The notes under the pieces: generated by a model
Database searches by the model: none
Seen by the model: only the letters and a program-made list of their open reading frames with translations
Told to the model about the DNA's origin: nothing
Made by a program: the position numbers and the translations under genes
Shown here: piece by piece, positions 2,634 through 45,659 of the stretch
Position numbering within the stretch: the stretch's first letter is position 1
Layout of the letters: every line of letters starts with the position of its first letter
IMG/VR virus record: IMGVR_UViG_3300049846_002429
Span: 3,160 to 67,159 of that record
DNA: 64,000 nt
DNA from: a virus
Reading direction: 5' to 3' (one strand)

Positions 2634-3326
2634 ATGGCTAAAATTATTAAAAATACTACAGGTTCAAGCATTGCTATAGCAGATACAGGAATTACAGTTC
2701 CTGCTAATTCTCAATATACAATTCCACCACAAGATTATTGGCTTTGGGCTGCATCTGATAACATCATTACCAGAGTTGGCAATGGGTCAATCGTAGTTAA
2801 CGATGGTTCTTTTGATCTTGGAATATCAGATGGAATGGATTTAATTAAAGGATTATTTCCTGCTCAAGTAGAGGTTAAAAGTGTTCCTGGAGAAATAGTT
2901 GTCGTTAGAGACGATGACCTTAATGTTACCCTCGCTTCAATAGCTTCAAGTTTAGGAGCTACCTCTGGAAACGGTATAGTAAAATATGGTATGACTCCTG
3001 TAACTACAAAAACAGAAACAGATTTAACAGACACCATTTACACAGTACCTTCAGGCAAGAAATTTTCAATAAATAATTTTACAGGCTCTTATGATTTACA
3101 GTTTACAACAATAGTTAGATTCAAAAAACAGACTGGTGGTACAGGAGCATTTAATACGATGTTTGCTATGACATTGCAGGTTGGTGGTCAAGGACAAAGC
3201 ACCATTCCTATAAATTTTGGTAACGGAGTTATTGTAGGCTCTGCAGGAGATGTTTTTAAAATTACCTATGAAACAACCAACTCTAGAGGCAACATAAGAG
3301 CTTTTTTTACAGGAAATGAAATTTAA
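2634..3326 (+). CDS. hypothetical protein (structural block)
   Basis: 230-aa ORF; ATGG overlap with next gene. Confidence 0.5.
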   Translation: MAKIIKNTTGSSIAIADTGITVPANSQYTIPPQDYWLWAASDNIITRVGNGSIVVNDGSFDLGISDGMDLIKGLFPAQVEVKSVPGEIVVVRDDDLNVTLASIASSLGATSGNGIVKYGMTPVTTKTETDLTDTIYTVPSGKKFSINNFTGSYDLQFTTIVRFKKQTGGTGAFNTMFAMTLQVGGQGQSTIPINFGNGVIVGSAGDVFKITYETTNSRGNIRAFFTGNEI

Positions 3327-8025: not shown

Positions 8026-8034
8026 ATTATACCA
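8026..8034 (-). promoter_or_regulatory. extended -10 promoter (minus strand TGGTATAAT)
   Basis: Reverse complement of ATTATACCA. Confidence 0.5.
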
Positions 8035-25688: not shown

Positions 25689-25980
25689 TGGGTTGACCAA
25701 GGAAGAACGGTGGATGGTTGAGCAAATCAAGGCCCAACTGCCACTCATTGAAAAAATACCTAATCCAGACAAATCTCGCTGTTTACTTGGCCTTGCATAT
25801 GAATATTTCCTTATGGATATGGAAGAAGAGGCCTACAAGCTTTTAGAGAAAGCAGACCCAGCCTATTTCAGTGAGCAACTGGGCAAAGATATGGAAGAAA
25901 TGTCTGAAATGACAGAGATTGTCATGAGAATTCTCGATAAATTGATGGATATCGGCGTTGTTGTGGTTAAGACTAAATGA
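25681..25980 (+). CDS. hypothetical protein
   Basis: 99-aa ORF. Confidence 0.5.
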   Translation: MNDGLTKEERWMVEQIKAQLPLIEKIPNPDKSRCLLGLAYEYFLMDMEEEAYKLLEKADPAYFSEQLGKDMEEMSEMTEIVMRILDKLMDIGVVVVKTK

Positions 25981-25986
25981 TTTAAT

Positions 25987-25995
25987 GGTATAATA
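25987..25995 (+). promoter_or_regulatory. extended -10 promoter TGGTATAAT driving a non-coding region
   Basis: ATGGTATAAT followed by ~1.1 kb without a credible ORF. Confidence 0.5.
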
Positions 25996-25999
25996 TAAT

Positions 26000-26190
26000 G
26001 TGCAGTTTCGCGCAGGCTGTGGAGAGGGAAAGCATCCTCTTAGATGCGCCACTGGAAGTGCGAGCTACCCTGAACTAGATGCATGTTCAGGATGTAGGGA
26101 GACTAGCGGTAGGCATCTACTGACGACAGTTTGAAACCACCTGAACCCCAGCCAGTACGCCACTGGCCTGCACGTTTTGTTTTGTTTTTG
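26000..26190 (+). ncRNA. candidate ~185-nt small RNA with paired 5'/3' ends and an intrinsic terminator (6S-like or leader/riboswitch-like)
   Basis: 5' GTGCAG pairs with 3' CTGCAC. Internal perfect hairpins include CCTGAAC-tagatgcat-GTTCAGG. Terminator GCCAGT-acgcc-ACTGGC followed by GTTTTGTTTTGTTTTTG. CGCCACTGG occurs twice. Confidence 0.4.
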
Positions 26191-26195
26191 ATTTG

Positions 26196-26304
26196 TGGCA
26201 TATAGCTCAGTTGGCCAGAGCGTCTGAGATGCTCGTCTACGGACGGCTTCGCTGCTTCTGTGATGGGAGCCAGAAGGTCATAGGTTCGATTCCTATTATG
26301 CTAC
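26196..26304 (+). tRNA. tRNA-like gene with canonical acceptor, D- and T-arms but a ~58-nt irregular middle (possible intron, aberrant anticodon arm or decoy)
   Basis: Acceptor TGGCATA/TATGCTA, D-arm GCTC-AGTTGGCCA-GAGC, T-arm ATAGG-TTCGATT-CCTAT. Candidate anticodon stem TTCTG/CAGAA with a GGG-containing loop. Needs tRNAscan or Infernal. Confidence 0.4.
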
Positions 26305-27149
26305 TTTATTTTTGTGTAGCGGCGTGGGAAGCTGTATAAGGGGTAGCGGTCATTCGTTACTTAAATCATTCGATAGCTGGCGGCCCTTATCTAGAGACAC
26401 GCAGATTCTATAGATTATTGACTATAGGATTAAAAGACGATGGAAAAGCAATTGCGGAGTAAAGGCCGCCTTTCTCTCCAGCAGATCGTTGTCTGGCGAA
26501 CTCGTCAATGCAGGTGGAATTCCTGAGTCGGAGTAGCGACCGACCTACACATTTAGTTTTTGTTTTATGGGTAAGGTGACTTAAAACGTCACTAGCGCAA
26601 GGTGTGACGCACGGAACATGGAATTGGTATAAATCCATGGCGTACAGCCCGATGACCCTGACGAGAGACCAAGACTCCACTAAAGACCTGAATTGTGGCC
26701 ACAATCAGGGGATAATGTAGGTCGATAACGGAGCGCGGCTTGCGACCGCTTACTTTTGAATTTGAAAAAGGAAAGAGTAGTAGGGTTGAACTTTCCTTGC
26801 GATAAGACTCTGGCAACACCAGAAGTAAACTCGCCTTGATAAATAAACAACTCATTGATAGCGTGGTGAGGCCCGAATAAAGAATGGATTGTACAGTCTA
26901 TTCTAGCCTCTAGCCTGCGATACACAGGTGATGGTGTTTCGGACGGAGCAGAAAACTGGTATTAAGTCTGCCTAGTGCCGATTGCGAATAAAAGTAAAGG
27001 CACACCCCACGCTTCTCTTTTTAATAGCTTTAAAAACAGCTATTAAGTCATTTTTCGCCTATAACGACTCTAAATGAGACGATTATAGCGAACATCTTGC
27101 AAATCACAGAAAATTAATGTACTATTATGAAAACGAGCAATAAAGCTTG
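26305..27149 (+). ncRNA. ~850-nt ORF-free, hairpin-rich region: candidate large structured ncRNA (GOLLD/ROOL-like), tRNA-adjacent
   Basis: No ORF has an RBS. Stems include CTATAG..CTATAG, GTGAC-ttaaaac-GTCAC, CCTGAATTGTGG/CCACAATCAGG, GGAAAG..CTTTCC, AATAGCT-ttaaaaac-AGCTATT, and long-range GGCGGCC/GGCCGCC. Bounded by promoters at 25987 and 27150. Confidence 0.3.
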
Positions 27150-27158
27150 TGGTATAAT
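27150..27158 (+). promoter_or_regulatory. extended -10 promoter TTGTGGTATAAT
   Basis: Exact 12-mer. Confidence 0.55.
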
Positions 27159-27207
27159 GTTTTAGAACAATAACAAACTCCCGAAAGGGAAAAAAGGAGA
27201 AATGTAC

Positions 27208-27921
27208 ATGAAAAAGTTAATGGTGATGCTTTGTCTGTTGGGTGCAGTTGGTTGCTCCCCAGATCGAGAGGTAGTAGAGATCGTAAATGGAACCCCAGGA
27301 ACAAACGGACATTCGCTTGTTTCTCAATATATGGCCGCCACAGAACTTGAGTGTGATAGTGCAGGCGGTAGTCGTCTAGACATCTATATCGATATGGACG
27401 ATTCTTTGACGCCTTCAGAAGGCGATAACTATCAGAATTCTTTGGTGGTTTGTAACGGCTTGAATGGATTAAACGGACAAGATGGTCAAGATGGTCAAGA
27501 TGGAACTGACGGCAGTAACGGCGAAAACGGACACGATGGAATCGCAGGTCCTCCTGGACAAGCAGGTCCTCCTGGATTAAACGGAAACCCTGGACAAGAC
27601 GGCGCACCTGGACCTCAAGGACCTCCTGGAACACCTGGCGCACCTGGACAAGACGGCGCACCTGGACAAGATGGTAAAGATGCACACGTAACTCCTCGTA
27701 ATGTTGGCGCAAATTGCACAAACATTCATCCTAATTACGATGCATTGATTAAGAACAATACTGTTGAAATTTACACAGCAAATGCAAGTCATTCTTGCCC
27801 TGCTCCTAACAAAGTATTTGTTTTGACCTCATCTTCTTCGACTTTCTGGCTGTCAGCTACTGAACTTGCTGTTTTTGTTGACCCTGCTGGTCTTCGTATC
27901 TTAAACTATGGTTCAAACTAA
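27208..27921 (+). CDS. collagen-like repeat lipoprotein
   Basis: Lipobox LLGAVGC after signal peptide. About 25 uninterrupted Gly-X-Y triplets ([13 protein letters not shown]...GAPGQDGKD). Confidence 0.65.
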
Positions 27922-40386: not shown

Positions 40387-41271
40387 GTGAATTTAATTGA
40401 AAGATTACACAGCAAAAATTTAATCAAACCACCAAGCTTTGTTGTCGGTGGAACCCAATATATGACCCTTATGGGTTCGATTGCATATGGAGTATCGTCA
40501 GACGCATCTGACTGCGATATCTATGGATTTTGCATTCCTCCAAAAGATTATATCTTCCCTCATTTAGCAGGCCATATTCCAGGGTTTTCAACCCAGGTTC
40601 AGGGGTTTGATCAATATCAAGAACATCATATCAAAGAAAAAGACCATAACAAGTCTTACGACTTGAATATTTATTCGATCATTAAGTATTTCAGACTGGT
40701 TATGGATAACAATCCTAACATGATTGACTCTCTGTTTACAGCACAAAATATGGTCTTAACCTCTACAAAAATTTCAGATATGGTTCGAGACCAGCGTAAA
40801 ATGTTCCTTCATAAAGGCTCGTGGCACAAGTTTAAGGGCTATGCCTATAGTCAGATGCATAAAATGAAAATCAAAGAGCCAGACCCAGATTCTGTGCGCT
40901 TTGAGATGGTCCAAAAATATGGATATGATGTAAAGTTTGCCTATCATGTTGTTCGTCTTCTAGATGAGGTCGAGCAGATTCTCATGGAAGGTGATATTGA
41001 CCTTATGAGAAATAGAGAGCAGTTAAAATCTATTCGTCGTGGGGAGTGGAAGATGGAAGATATCGAAGCTCATTTTACTCGAAAAGAAAAAGATCTAGAA
41101 ACTGCTTACGTTAACAGTAAACTTCAGCATAAGCCAGATGAGAAGAAAATCAGACAGCTTCTTATAGACTGTCTGGAAGAGCATTTTGGCGACCTTTCAA
41201 CAGCAGTAAACAAAGAAAACGATTCAACAATAATTTTAAAACAAATTAAGGAGCTAGTGAAAAACGTATGA
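40387..41271 (+). CDS. Pol-beta-superfamily nucleotidyltransferase
   Basis: GSIAYGVSSDASDCDIYGF (GS...D.D); GTG start with GGGAG RBS. Confidence 0.55.
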   Translation: MNLIERLHSKNLIKPPSFVVGGTQYMTLMGSIAYGVSSDASDCDIYGFCIPPKDYIFPHLAGHIPGFSTQVQGFDQYQEHHIKEKDHNKSYDLNIYSIIKYFRLVMDNNPNMIDSLFTAQNMVLTSTKISDMVRDQRKMFLHKGSWHKFKGYAYSQMHKMKIKEPDPDSVRFEMVQKYGYDVKFAYHVVRLLDEVEQILMEGDIDLMRNREQLKSIRRGEWKMEDIEAHFTRKEKDLETAYVNSKLQHKPDEKKIRQLLIDCLEEHFGDLSTAVNKENDSTIILKQIKELVKNV

Positions 41272-41391
41272 GAACGATAGACATTTATGTTGCTGTTATA
41301 GACACATTAATCCTTCTTTTGCTGATCGGATGGTCTTACATGGATAGGCACAATTTATATATTGAAAAGAAAAAAAAGAGGAGAAAATAAG

Positions 41392-41787
41392 ATGATTCTG
41401 TTCGTAGCATCAAACCCATCAAAACTTAATACAGACCCAACAATTGCAATGGTAGGCTCTAAATCAGAGAAAACCTTCAATAGCTGGGCAGAATACCTAT
41501 CCAACCACACTAGAGATTTTGTTGTTATCAACGCTTCCAATAAAGTTTTAAAAGACGGAGAAGTTCTTAAGGTTGAGGATATTGATTTTGAAAAGCTTAT
41601 TCGATGGACACATGATAAGTATATCACTAAGATCGTGGCGTTAGGAAATGTGGCTTCAAAAGCTCTTTCTTATGTTGGAGCTGAGCACTATAAGTTACCA
41701 CACCCAAGCCCTCGAAATCGTTTCTTAAATAACACTGAGCAGGTTGAGGCGGTTTTAGAAAATTGCAAACAGTGGCTGGAGACATAG
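41392..41787 (+). CDS. uracil-DNA-glycosylase-superfamily-like protein (atypical motifs)
   Basis: LFVASNPS (motif-A-like) and KLPHPSPRN (motif-B-like HPSP); RBS AGAGGAG. Confidence 0.35.
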   Translation: MILFVASNPSKLNTDPTIAMVGSKSEKTFNSWAEYLSNHTRDFVVINASNKVLKDGEVLKVEDIDFEKLIRWTHDKYITKIVALGNVASKALSYVGAEHYKLPHPSPRNRFLNNTEQVEAVLENCKQWLET

Positions 41788-42372
41788 ATGCTTACGGCAA
41801 TGGGAGATGTTCTTAGAGAGGCACATAAGCGTGGGTGGATTACCACTCGTGACGGCAATATTTCTTTAAGGCGTAATGGTAAGTTTTACATCACACCTTC
41901 TGCTGGTAGAAAAACCATTATTCATCCAGAACACATTATCAAATTTTCAATTGAAAATAATTTGCTACAAATTCCACCTGATTTTGTGGCAAAGCCTAGT
42001 ATTGAGCTTGATATGCATTGGGGATTGCAAAGGTTACACAAAGGTACGAGGGCTGTTGTTCATCTTCACCCTACTTATACAATTGCAGCCATGTATGCTG
42101 GATTAGATCTTTATCAAATTACCAAAGAATTTCCAGAGCTTAAAAGATATACGAAAATAGGGAATACGGCTTCTTATTCTGAACCTGGAAGTCAAGATCT
42201 TGCAGAAAATGTTGTAAAAGGGTTGACGAGGCAGGGTAAATTAGCGTATGATATTATAGGAATGGACAGACATGGTGTTTGTGCTATTGGTAAGAGTCCT
42301 TGGGATGCGTTTGAGCATATTGAGCGACTCGAACATATTTGTCAAATTGTATTAGCTTCGGGGAGAAAATAA
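41788..42372 (+). CDS. class II aldolase/adducin-domain protein
   Basis: DGNISLR, YITPSAG, VVHLHPTY. Confidence 0.5.
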   Translation: MLTAMGDVLREAHKRGWITTRDGNISLRRNGKFYITPSAGRKTIIHPEHIIKFSIENNLLQIPPDFVAKPSIELDMHWGLQRLHKGTRAVVHLHPTYTIAAMYAGLDLYQITKEFPELKRYTKIGNTASYSEPGSQDLAENVVKGLTRQGKLAYDIIGMDRHGVCAIGKSPWDAFEHIERLEHICQIVLASGRK

Positions 42373-43310
42373 TGCCAACAATTACTGTATTGGTAGGGCC
42401 GCCTGGGTCTGGTAAGAGTACATTTGCTAACGATTATTGCAGAAATCATCCACTGCCTCCAAATTGCACCAGAATTAGCCAAGACGATCAGGGTAAAGAT
42501 GGCCATATGAGCCTTTTCAATAGCGCTTTGTCGGCTCGCTCAGATCTTGTTATTGATCGCATGAATTTTGATAAAAATCAGCGTGAGCGATATCTTAAGC
42601 CTGCTCGTGATGCTGGATATGCAACTAGAATCATTGTTTTTCACGTTTCTTTGAAAACGTGTCTTGAGCGTTGTGCTGCAAGAGAAAATCACCCAACTAT
42701 TCAAGATGCGAAAACGGCCAGTCAAGCTGTTAACTTCTTCTTTAGTAAATATGAGCGAGTTCAGGATGATGAGGCTGATGAGGTTATGCGAATGGGATGG
42801 GTAGATATTAGAGCACCAAAGTGTATTTGGTCAGACCTTGACGGAACTGTTGCTGATGTTGAGCATCGCCGCAGACACGTTCGTCCATCCGTTGTAGCCA
42901 CGACCCATCGTTTGGAAGACTTGCCTGCTGAGCCAGTTAAGTTTAAGCCAAACTGGAAAGCTTTTTTCGATGAAATGGAACTTGACCCAGTTGATGAGAC
43001 TGTTAGGTCGATTCTTGATGATAAATCACACACATATCCTATTGTCTATGCTACAGGTAGGCCGGATAATTACAAGCAACAGACAGAAAGATGGCTCATT
43101 GAAAATGGCCTGAGATATCCAGGCTCTTCGCTGTTTATGCGTATGCGTAACGATATGCGTAGAGACGATATTGTTAAAGAGATCATTTTGGAATTTGAAG
43201 TAAAAACAAAATATAACGTATTCTTTGCCCTTGATGATAGAGATCAAGTTGTAAAAATGCTTAGAAAACATGGCGTAAAAGTTTTACAATGCGCCGAAGG
43301 AGATTTTTAA
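42372..43310 (+). CDS. polynucleotide 5'-kinase/3'-phosphatase (T4 Pnk-like)
   Basis: N-terminal P-loop VLVGPPGSGKST; C-terminal HAD motif IWSDLDGTVAD. Confidence 0.65.
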   Translation: MPTITVLVGPPGSGKSTFANDYCRNHPLPPNCTRISQDDQGKDGHMSLFNSALSARSDLVIDRMNFDKNQRERYLKPARDAGYATRIIVFHVSLKTCLERCAARENHPTIQDAKTASQAVNFFFSKYERVQDDEADEVMRMGWVDIRAPKCIWSDLDGTVADVEHRRRHVRPSVVATTHRLEDLPAEPVKFKPNWKAFFDEMELDPVDETVRSILDDKSHTYPIVYATGRPDNYKQQTERWLIENGLRYPGSSLFMRMRNDMRRDDIVKEIILEFEVKTKYNVFFALDDRDQVVKMLRKHGVKVLQCAEGDF

Positions 43311-43591
43311 TGGAAAGTTTTAAATTTGATGGCTCAGATTATGTGCCCAAAAGAGACGATGTAAGATTGTCGGTCCAATATCTTCGTATTTTTGAATTGA
43401 TGAAAGACGGAGTTTATCGCACGTTGCTAGAAATTGAGCAGAAAACAGGAGACCCACAGGCTTCTATTTCTGCCCAACTTAGACACATGAGAAAAGAGCG
43501 TTTTGGCTCACACGTTATTAATAAAATTTATTTAGGAAAAGGATTGTATCAATACCAACTTATTGTAAATGCAGGAGGCTCTAATGTTTGA
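43310..43591 (+). CDS. small winged-helix-like DNA-binding protein
   Basis: RBS GAAGGAG; TAATG coupling. Confidence 0.4.
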   Translation: MESFKFDGSDYVPKRDDVRLSVQYLRIFELMKDGVYRTLLEIEQKTGDPQASISAQLRHMRKERFGSHVINKIYLGKGLYQYQLIVNAGGSNV

Positions 43592-44822
43592 AAACGTAAA
43601 ACTTAGCTGGTTTAAAAAAGCTGCAAAATTGGAAGAGGGCGTTGCCGATATCAGCGCCGGACCATCTGGCGAGCAAGAAGAGCAAACAGATTCTGGCTCA
43701 ACCTACAAAGTTCCTCTGACTAAGATCTTGGCCATTGAGCCGCATCCTAATGCAGATCGTCTTGAGTTGGCCACTGTTTATGGGTTTCAGGTTATTGTAA
43801 AGAAAGATTCGTATAAGGTCGGCGACTCCATGATTTACATTCCTATTGACTCTATCTTGCCTAAGAATTTGGAAGACTCTCTATTTCCTGAAGACTCCAA
43901 GGTTAAATTAAATAAGAGTCGAGTTAGACAGATTCGCCTTCGTAAGATCGCTTCTCAAGGCATGTTGATTTCTCCAGAAGAGATTAAGGCTGTATTTGGA
44001 TTTCTACCCAATGAAGATGAGCGTGATTATTCAAAAGAATTGCAAGTTAAGAAATATCAGCCGCCTGCTCCAAAGTTTCAATCAGCGATGACCGGAGCGC
44101 GAAAGGTAAAGCCATTAGAAAATCCTTTATTTCACAAGTATAATGGTCTAGATAATATAAAATGGTTTCCCACACTGTTTAAAGATGGTGAAATCGTCGT
44201 AATGCAAGAGAAGATTCATGGTACGAATGCGCGAGCAGGAAAGCTTCCTTTTGTCGCAAACAATCTTTGGAAAAAGATTAAAAAAGCGCTTAAACTAGTT
44301 CCGGCCTTTGAATTCTGCTATGGTTCTAACAACGTACAACTTCAGGAGCGTCAGGGCTATACAGGTTTTTATGGAGAGGATATCTATGGTAGGGTTTTTA
44401 AAGCGATGGATGTTGAGTCTAGGCTTAAAGATGGCGAGACCATTTTCGGAGAAATCTATGGAGAGGGTATTCAGAAGGGATACAATTACGGTCTCAAAAA
44501 CGAACAACGATTCATCTTATTTGACGTTAAAGTCCTCGACTATGAAGGAAAACAGCGCTGGCTAGGCCCAGACGAGGTTAAGGCGTTTGCAAAAGAGCGC
44601 GGCTTTGATTTGGTGCCAGAAGTCTACAGAGGCCCATTTTCACTGCCACTGGCTAAAGAATTGACAAAAGGCGACTCTATACTGGCTCCTTCTCAGAAGG
44701 TTAGAGAAGGCGTGGTAGTTAAGGCTCTACATGGTTATAGCGATGAACGTGGTAACAATAAGGCTTTAAAGGTGATTTCAGAGGCTTATCTAGATAATGC
44801 CGATAACACGGATTTCCATTAA
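43584..44822 (+). CDS. RNA ligase, Rnl2 family (nucleotidyltransferase motif I KIHGTN)
   Basis: EKIHGTNARAG matches T4 Rnl2 motif I; EGVVVK resembles motif IV; AGGAGG RBS 5 nt before internal ATG. Confidence 0.6.
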   Translation: MFENVKLSWFKKAAKLEEGVADISAGPSGEQEEQTDSGSTYKVPLTKILAIEPHPNADRLELATVYGFQVIVKKDSYKVGDSMIYIPIDSILPKNLEDSLFPEDSKVKLNKSRVRQIRLRKIASQGMLISPEEIKAVFGFLPNEDERDYSKELQVKKYQPPAPKFQSAMTGARKVKPLENPLFHKYNGLDNIKWFPTLFKDGEIVVMQEKIHGTNARAGKLPFVANNLWKKIKKALKLVPAFEFCYGSNNVQLQERQGYTGFYGEDIYGRVFKAMDVESRLKDGETIFGEIYGEGIQKGYNYGLKNEQRFILFDVKVLDYEGKQRWLGPDEVKAFAKERGFDLVPEVYRGPFSLPLAKELTKGDSILAPSQKVREGVVVKALHGYSDERGNNKALKVISEAYLDNADNTDFH

Positions 44823-44843
44823 TTTGACACTGCAGGGGAATTG

Positions 44844-44852
44844 TGGTATTAT
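44844..44852 (+). promoter_or_regulatory. extended -10 promoter TTGTGGTATTAT (6 nt from ATG 44859)
   Basis: Motif overlaps the TTG-initiated upstream extension of the ORF. Confidence 0.4.
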
Positions 44853-44858
44853 AGAAGT

Positions 44859-45659
44859 ATGAAAGTAAACCTAGTTGGAGACATTACAGGATTTTTTGAA
44901 AGCTTTAAGGCTTTGATGGGCCAAATGCCCACCGGAGAGCTTTGGGCTTTGGGAGACCTTGTTGATCGAGGTCCTGGCTCTAAACAGGTACTAGATTACT
45001 TTATTGATGGCAAGCACAATTCTGTTATGGGCAACCATGATCACATGATGCTTTTTGAAAGCATTCGTAATAATTCTGACGTTAACTCTAGACTTTATCC
45101 GTATGGATGCTGGATTGCAAATGGTGGAGATGAGACCACAAAGAGTTTTGGCTTTAAAGAGTGGTATGAGTTTGATTCTGCAAAGATTGATAGTAAATAT
45201 TTTGAGTTTCTAAAAAATATGCCTCTACAAGTAGACATAGGCGCTCTTAAGTTGACACATGCTCCTATTAACGATAAAAATAATAAAAGAGCTTTTGATT
45301 TGAAGGAGATAAACAAAGACCCCTATTTGATTGATAAGAGTATTTTGTGGAACCGTCTTCCTCCTAAAAAGATGGAAGGAAAATTTCAGGTTTATGGACA
45401 CAATTCTTCCAAGGGGATATTGTGGCATACAAATAAATTTCCTCAAGGAGTTTACATGGCAGACCCTTTTGAGGTTCCAGAAGGAGCTTGGGGAGTTTGT
45501 ATAGATACTTGGGGTAGAGGATATTTAACTGGACTGCACATCGACACCGTTTTGTTGGCAGACCCGAAACAGGCAATAACCGTATTTAAACAACCTTTTG
45601 TGAATTCTGATGTTGCTGCTATAGAGGAAATGATATGGAAACAAAAACAGAGGAAGTAA
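44859..45659 (+). CDS. Ser/Thr-phosphatase-type metallophosphoesterase (lambda PPase/ApaH-like)
   Basis: VGDITG, LGDLVDRGP, GNHDHMM; start ambiguous (TTG 44841 versus ATG 44859). Confidence 0.6.
   Translation: MKVNLVGDITGFFESFKALMGQMPTGELWALGDLVDRGPGSKQVLDYFIDGKHNSVMGNHDHMMLFESIRNNSDVNSRLYPYGCWIANGGDETTKSFGFKEWYEFDSAKIDSKYFEFLKNMPLQVDIGALKLTHAPINDKNNKRAFDLKEINKDPYLIDKSILWNRLPPKKMEGKFQVYGHNSSKGILWHTNKFPQGVYMADPFEVPEGAWGVCIDTWGRGYLTGLHIDTVLLADPKQAITVFKQPFVNSDVAAIEEMIWKQKQRK

Follow-up and report, generated by a model that had tools for sequence, protein, structure and literature searches.

A pseudoknotted RNA element, probably one module of a stable-RNA operon, in an uncultured large tailed phage

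Immediately downstream of a gene for a 99-aa protein, the analysed stretch of viral DNA (64,000 nucleotides, positions 3,160 to 67,159 of IMG/VR record IMGVR_UViG_3300049846_002429; hereafter the window) carries an element of about 175 nt (26000–26173; element A), which is probably a structured RNA without coding function from a family not described before, and a module of a polycistronic "stable-RNA operon" of an uncultured large tailed phage. Judged from its sequence, A is under strong selection in a compact pseudoknot core, and this applies to at least this one RNA of the array. The family is represented by three distinct sequences, of which those of the window and of contig L008 are nearly identical outside one arm. 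The call of a structured RNA at this site, made in an initial annotation of the window, is borne out by a conserved, covarying core in the homologues of L008 and L018, closed by paired ends. Phage-encoded small RNAs are little explored, and two stable RNAs of the T4 tRNA cluster are still without a role decades after their discovery. Here, in one uncultured phage lineage, a hot spot behind a conserved promoter appears to swap tRNAs, aberrant tRNA-like RNAs and unrelated structured RNAs.

Element A is the first module of an ORF-free stretch of about 1.2 kb, the only long one in the window, and the G+C content of this stretch is 0.475, as compared with about 0.39 in the surrounding sequence (Table 1). 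A consensus promoter had been annotated directly before A, and it withstood closer inspection: TTAAGA-16-TATAAT scored 10/12 in a promoter scan, with an upstream TG, and the extended -10 lies 6 nt upstream of A. The same promoter follows the homologous 99-aa gene, at the same place, in five further contigs (L008, L013, L015, L016 and L018). Its extended -10 sequence, TGGTATAAT, occurs in 10 exact copies in the window against 0.49 expected; most of them have TG or TT just before, and the aligned copies have a common context. This excess and the shared context indicate that the promoter of A belongs to a promoter class of the phage, and from its sequence this class looks like one that relies on the extended -10 and not on a -35 box. 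Two of the copies, at 8026 and 8053, face one another. As the promoter at 25986 is followed by the next one at 27150 with no ORF between them, the region from 26000 to about 27030 looks like a single transcription unit.

Table 1. Features of element A, of the RNA array and of the RNA-repair cluster; coordinates are those of the window unless a contig is named.
Feature	Coordinates	Strand	Description
TGGTATAAT copies	8026, 8053, 10246, 23258, 25986, 27150, 32756, 37208, 37504, 63533		exact matches
Promoter	25967–25994	+	TTAAGA, 16-nt spacer, extended -10 TGGTATAAT (25986–25994)
P1 5' strand GUGCAG	26000–26005	+	closing helix; extendable to 25998–26005 via U-G and A-U pairs
Variable 5' arm	26008–26063	+	holds the body copy of CGCCACTGG; pairing candidate only
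Hairpin P4	26070–26090	+	CUGAAC (26070–26075), loop UAGAUGCAU (26076–26084), GUUCAG (26085–26090)
Core strands	26102–26126	+	ACUAGCGGU (26102–26110), GCAUCUA (26113–26119), ACUGACGA (26119–26126)
3' joining region CAGUUUGAAACCACCUGAACCCCA	26127–26150	+	conserved; no assigned partner
P5 hairpin and P1 3' strand	26151–26173	+	P5 GCCAGU-ACGCC-ACUGGC (26151–26167); P1 3' strand CUGCAC (26168–26173)
U-rich spacer GUUUUGUUUUGUUUUUGAUUUG	26174–26195	+	between A and tRNA-like gene T1
T1 tRNA-like gene	26196–26304	+	48.6 bits against Rfam tRNA, in sensitive scans only
Module C	26313–26551	+	closed by UGUGUAG/CUACACA, abutting 5-bp hairpin
Module B	26571–26757	+	76% identical to L008 5651–5836
~50-nt element	L016 about 640–695, about 785–840; L018 about 3085–3135
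RlaP nucleotidyltransferase	40387–41271		RNA-repair cluster
Polynucleotide kinase-phosphatase (PNKP)	42339–43310		RNA-repair cluster
RNA ligase	43569–44822		RNA-repair cluster; OB domain
Metallophosphoesterase (calcineurin-like)	44841–45659		RNA-repair cluster

Thirteen relatives of the 99-aa protein (56–72% identity) were present among public metagenome proteins, and contigs were fetched for 11 of them. In L008 and L009, in which the protein is 68% identical, A is 78% identical, with all length differences in one arm; in L008 it is followed by a different tRNA-like RNA and then by a homologue of module B. In L018 and L020 (protein 57% identical) A is far more diverged, and in L018 it stands second in the array, after module D and before module C, without a TGGTATAAT promoter of its own. 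Other relatives carry other RNAs behind the same promoter: an ordinary-looking tRNA in L013 and L014, another RNA, some 150 nt long and with a closing helix of 11 bp, in L015, and two tRNA-like genes, each with a 50-nt element before it, in L016. The arrays of L017 and L018 lie further downstream. These differing module sets behind the same promoter suggest that the site is a hot spot at which small-RNA modules are exchanged. At seven of the 11 homologue loci (P0014, P0008, P0011, P0010, P0012, P0007 and P0013) there was no non-coding gap after the homologous gene or nearby, and the RNA array was missing beside the IMG/VR relatives (L001–L006) of the downstream 174-aa gene.

Wider searches added few sequences. 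A covariance model of the A core, run over 155 kb of related sequence, found the three known copies and no paralogues, and exact and degenerate DNA probes for A had no matches in IMG/VR, JGI metagenome contigs or GTDB genomes. Such probes were likewise run for modules B, C and T1, and the module C probe added one contig, L024. A looser A probe gave 16 genome matches, which were counted as chance because they lie in unrelated, apparently coding contexts and are devoid of GUGCAG and P4. By blastn, neither the region 25900–27250, searched with a word size of 11, nor the arrays matched any of 50,697 phage records, which we take to include T4-type genomes.

Common to all three versions of A are the 5' sequence GUGCAGUU, the 6-bp hairpin P4, and the string ACUAGCGGU-N8-ACUGACGA, in which N8 plus the next A is complementary to the P4 loop. 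Thus, GCAUCUA, lying between the two invariant strands, provides the 3' strand of a predicted H-type pseudoknot: from 30 nt downstream it pairs with 26076–26082 of the loop. The core pattern was found once in the window, with 0.00 occurrences expected, and again in L008 and L018. Four of the six P4 pairs have compensatory double changes (CUGAAC/GUUCAG in the window, CCAAAC/GUUUGG and CCAAGG/CCUUGG in the L008 and L018 versions), and so do three of the seven pseudoknot pairs, among which one cell is broken. In L018 the two sides of the pseudoknot have changed together and in the same register, UAGUCGU with ACGACCA, the window having UAGAUGC with GCAUCUA. In the hand-made alignment of the three sequences, which takes the invariant strands and the TAG of the loop as its anchors and whose pair counts therefore lean toward structure, 97% of the cells of the 13 pairs of P4 and pseudoknot are paired, and 7/13 pairs have double changes. 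None of 500 shuffles attained the observed values, and slid registers gave no double change. For three sequences, with a loop alignment of our own choosing, the support for P4 and the pseudoknot appears strong.

The core is enclosed by less uniform parts. The complementarity of GTGCAG (26000–26005) to CTGCAC (26168–26173), on which the initial annotation had based a closed architecture, is seen on direct reading, and the resulting helix P1 is predicted both in the minimum free energy (MFE) fold and in the RNAalifold consensus. P1 is invariant in L008, in which its flanking pairs change compatibly (U-G to U-A, A-U to G-U); in L018 it is only imperfectly kept. Hairpin P5, predicted by the same two methods, adjoins the 3' strand of P1 without an intervening nucleotide and has a 5-nt loop without T-loop sequence. 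As P5 and P1 are identical in L008 and the window, there is no covariation between those two; L018 has a differing 3' domain and no P5. The candidate pairings of the 5' arm are UCGCGC/GUGCGA (26008–26013 with 26058–26063), a hairpin AGAGG/CCUCU, and GCGC/GUGC, and RNAalifold proposes a competing long-range helix of 26013–26022 with 26124–26133. The L008 arm has insertions of 15 nt and 10 nt, and its MFE fold pairs UCGCAU/GUGCGA, while the entire arm is missing from L018. The motif CGCCACTGG was reported as duplicated, and in the window it is (26047–26055 and 26158–26166); this duplication did not hold among the relatives, the body copy being shrunk to CACTGG in L008 and lost from L018 along with its whole arm. 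The region CAGUUUGAAACCACCUGAACCCCA differs from that of L008 at a single position, and L018 has other sequence in its place; a search of the window for antisense targets of this conserved, presumably unpaired 3' region gave 9–10-mers only, at about chance level. Element A is followed by the T-rich tract GTTTTGTTTTGTTTTTG (26174–26190), and comparable U-rich spacers stand after T1, module C and module B in the window and after A in L008 and L018.

The neighbours of A in the array appear to be RNA modules as well. T1, which starts 22 nt after P1 of A, has normal acceptor, D and T arms and encodes no CCA, but its anticodon arm is enlarged by 35 nt. The replacement is branched: its outer stem is UCUG/CAGA in the window and UGUG/CACA in L016, one of its hairpins is variable and has a tetraloop, and the other, GCUUC-UGUGAUG-GRAGC, is conserved. 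The T1 homologue of L016 (838–944) has compensatory changes in acceptor pair 7, in the T stem and in the outer stem. T1 escaped both ARAGORN, which reported no tRNA in the window, and the default Rfam filters. Module C, a structured RNA of 165–250 nt with homologues in L018 (about 2809–3060) and, on the reverse strand, in L024 (about 380–545), had no Rfam match. It is closed by a 7-bp helix and a 5-bp hairpin that covaries; two of the three contigs have AGUAGCGA as the hairpin loop. Of the 12 pairs of this end structure, 3 have double changes, and slid controls have none. Its conserved sequences are the 5' GUGUAGCGGCGUGGRAAGCUGU and an internal CUAGAGACACGCA. A starts in a similar way (GUGCAG ... 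GCUGUGG), which makes a paralogous relation of A and C possible. In L024 module C has different phage surroundings, following a lysozyme-like gene and with a tRNA close by.

Module B contains two hairpins with compensatory changes between the window and L008, and it has in common with A the sequence ACUAGCG ... CUGACGA, the two parts being about 60 nt apart in B. A conserved hairpin loop of module B, UGGUAUAAA, is almost the extended -10 box of the phage. Module D, of about 145 nt, is nearly identical in L017 (about 2725–2875) and L018 (about 2445–2590); its closing helix is AUCAAC/GUUGAU, a 5-bp hairpin stands beside the 3' strand of this helix, and in L018 the module comes first behind the promoter.

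Several smaller elements were noticed in and around the arrays. A 58-nt element (window 26969–27026, L008 6707–6763) is 86% identical between the two contigs, and in both the next TGGTATAAT promoter follows it at a short distance. In L008 there is a 226-aa gene between the RNA array and this element, which may be an end signal of the preceding unit. By eye, the window (~26862–26910) and L016 (~969–1008) share GCGUGGUG.GCCCGAAUAA.GA ... AGUCU..CUAG, which may represent a further module of the array. Directly before tRNA-like genes there is a conserved element of about 50 nt, GUGGACGUGYGRACUUAAUKACGCU...GCGGUYCUGCCAYGC, whose ends can pair mutually or with an extended acceptor stem of the adjacent tRNA-like gene. 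The tRNA-Gly(UCC)-like genes of L013 (2423–2496) and L015 (336–409) have a T loop that reads UGAAACU where UUCRANY would be canonical, their D loop lacks GG, and they may not be ordinary elongator tRNAs.

Element A could not be assigned to any described RNA family. Rfam gave no match to it at the gathering threshold, none with permissive filters at E<=10 (25800–27200), and none at E<=0.1 over the whole window. The families that did not fit at E<=10 include 6S, tRNA, the bacterial Y RNA YrlA, GOLLD, ROOL, RNase P, tmRNA, riboswitches and small ribozymes. Likenesses to RNase P, tmRNA and SRP RNA that had been seen by eye were not borne out by the Rfam models. Sensitive scans of the window and six related loci returned tRNA matches and a sub-threshold YrlA match only; the latter, in L016, reached 27.5 bits against a cutoff of 69 bits and was caused by two tandem tRNA-like genes. 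A itself scores against neither the tRNA nor the YrlA model; it lacks D-loop and T-loop sequences, and a CCA is not encoded.

Among phage systems, the closest comparison is with RNAC and RNAD of T4 (species 1 and 2), small stable RNAs that lie within the phage tRNA cluster and are co-transcribed with it, and whose roles are unknown (PMC3014915). The likeness is one of layout, in which a promoter precedes a series of small RNAs, some of tRNA type and some not: the promoters at 25986 and 27150 enclose A, T1, C and B with no ORF among them, and these four are presumably co-transcribed. In contrast, the region 25900–27250 has no blastn similarity to any deposited phage, T4 included, and the companions of A are aberrant tRNA-like RNAs, whereas the T4 cluster is a set of decoding tRNAs. 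To our knowledge, no T4 counterpart of the pseudoknot core of A has been described. The large ornate RNAs GOLLD and ROOL are often found beside tRNA genes, and the whole 1-kb array could be compared with them. They are described as non-coding RNAs with a defined structure, frequent in phages and without an assigned function (PMC12286853). However, the array region has no covariance-model match to them at E<=10, and the U-rich spacers, together with modules that occur independently and in other orders in relatives, point to several small RNAs rather than one large RNA of the GOLLD/ROOL type.

The order of promoter, conserved pseudoknotted domain, hairpin and U tract is that of a transcriptional riboswitch, and A could be read as a cis-acting leader (riboswitch or attenuator) in which the core is a sensor, and P5/P1 with the U tract a conditional terminator gating the downstream modules. 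We consider this unlikely. In the window and L008, CCAGU could pair with CACUGG of the 5' arm in place of the 3' arm of P5, as in the alternative pairing proposed at first. The duplicated motif is not conserved as such; the sequences that keep it are nearly identical there, which leaves no contrast by which to judge the pairing, and both partners are missing from L018, whose A is internal to the array and devoid of 5' arm and P5. The hairpin and T tract that had been taken for a terminator are both present, but their placement is not canonical: the hairpin does not touch the tract because six bases (CTGCAC), the 3' strand of P1, lie between them. An intrinsic terminator would have a GC-rich hairpin and a U run within 0–2 nt of it; here the long-range helix P1 alone abuts the U run, and a terminator scan made no call at this place. 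The leader reading is further weakened by the U-rich tracts behind other modules, T1 included, by the lack of a consistent downstream gene (A is followed by T1 in the window, by another tRNA-like RNA in L008 and by module C in L018), and by the absence of any Rfam riboswitch match at E<=10. The shared spacers, the varying neighbours and the internal position of A in L018 argue against a cis-acting leader and favour release by processing. They also argue against a dedicated unit with its own promoter and terminator, as which A had originally been annotated.

A multi-RNA precursor needs cuts, and the core of about 60 nt (P4, pseudoknot and invariant strands) might be a small ribozyme of a new type, self-cleaving or with another catalytic activity, that takes part in processing the array. 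Small ribozymes typically present a compact pseudoknot with invariant unpaired nucleotides on its flanks, and a strand of A holds CUGACGA, which fits the hammerhead box, CUGANGA. Such a function nevertheless seems improbable: no hammerhead, pistol, twister, hatchet or HDV-like match was obtained at E<=10, and in L008 the box of module B reads CUGACGG. The hammerhead reading of CUGACGA was rejected, as a helix II followed by GAAA is missing after it in all three sequences.

The idea of A as what is left of a decayed tRNA gene, or as a chance structure without a function of its own, has similarly little to recommend it and is, if anything, a shade less probable. It draws on the plain tRNA that L013 carries in the same slot and behind the same promoter, and which begins GCAGUUG as compared with GUGCAGUU in A, and on the cloverleaf-like order of the helices of A (closing stem, 2-nt joint, arm, arm, abutting 3' hairpin). 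However, P4 and the pseudoknot are maintained by compensatory changes, two strands of 8–9 nt are invariant among contigs whose neighbouring protein is just 57–68% identical, and the 3' half of A is almost unchanged between the window and L008, in which the adjacent protein gene is 68% identical.

A 6S-like role, with sequestration of RNA polymerase as put forward in the initial annotation and open-promoter mimicry as its means, is scarcely credible. A does share with 6S RNA a similar length (~180 nt), paired 5' and 3' ends and, behind its strong promoter, a predicted abundant transcription. Yet neither gathering-threshold nor sensitive Rfam scans (E<=10) yielded a 6S match, and the rod-like fold is not unusually stable: the MFE fold is a rod of sorts, with z = -1.09, and 35 of 200 shuffles were equally stable. 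What evolution has kept is a pseudoknot, and not a long interrupted rod with a conserved central bubble, and the 5' arm, half of the would-be rod, is dispensable in L018. A small protein of 44 aa encoded by A from the GTG at 26000 has next to no chance of being real, as the coding reading (26000–26134) is ruled out by comparison of the window with L008, in which the ORF is also open (53 aa) with similar ends but in which, between 10-nt and 2-nt indels, the frames differ over conserved nucleotides (TGSAS...ELDACSG vs HWKCD...TRCMFG), and as the ORF has no Shine-Dalgarno sequence and its frame in L018 is open for 6 codons, with a stop at codon 7.

For A as a module of a stable-RNA operon, we infer processing, stability and action in trans along the following lines. 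A host sigma-70-type polymerase would transcribe the full array, from about 26000 to about 27030, from the TGGTATAAT promoter. Host enzymes of tRNA processing (RNase P, RNase E and 3' exonucleases) would then separate the modules, for example with RNase P acting at the 5' end of T1 and with cleavage or trimming in the U-rich spacers. The P1/P5 stack of 12–13 bp, which has the dimensions of a tRNA acceptor/T-arm stack, would shield the ends, so that a species of about 175–190 nt would accumulate. The invariant pseudoknot core would be the working surface that binds a partner in trans; as this partner we would guess at a protein or RNA with a place in tRNA or RNA-repair metabolism, or at a tRNA-targeting nuclease of the host, with A as its decoy. 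The array would in any case be a clean test case for the processing of a multi-RNA precursor in phage infection.

The likeness of A to tRNA is one of design. A has a closing helix, an abutting 3' hairpin, 12–13 stacked pairs (12 in tRNA) and a 2-nt joint after the 5' strand, and it occupies the slot that holds a tRNA in L013; the analogy with a tRNA minihelix is one of geometry only. The P1/P5 geometry, the same design in module C, the tRNA slot of L013 and the RNA-repair genes of the phage suggest, by analogy, a link of A to tRNA metabolism or to host tRNA-targeting defence, although the tRNA model does not recognise A. In other systems, RNA-repair genes are accompanied by tRNA-like partners (PMC7824862). 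It is conceivable, if rather doubtful, that A, T1 and C, and D in relatives, make up a toolkit of tRNA-shaped mimics that are matured by the tRNA machinery and act as decoys or as partners of RlaP, PNKP and ligase in an RNA-based counter-defence. Each mimic would, on the same long-shot reading, combine an acceptor-like helix and an abutting T-arm-like hairpin, with about 12 stacked pairs, with a non-tRNA body, which in A is the pseudoknot. As mimics or decoys, these RNAs would represent RNA-based counter-defence of a new kind; if they are neither, they would still add several families to covariance-model libraries.

The window also encodes baseplate and tail proteins and PhoH, and these, along with the RNA-repair cluster, indicate that it comes from a large tailed phage. 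Its RNA ligase is less than 31% identical to the closest one from a deposited phage, which suggests a lineage without a cultured relative. A class II aldolase-like protein is also encoded in the RNA-repair cassette (40387–45659). The RNA array is directly followed by a gene (27202–27921), with the TGGTATAAT promoter at 27150 in front of it, for a collagen triple-helix repeat protein with a lipoprotein-like signal.
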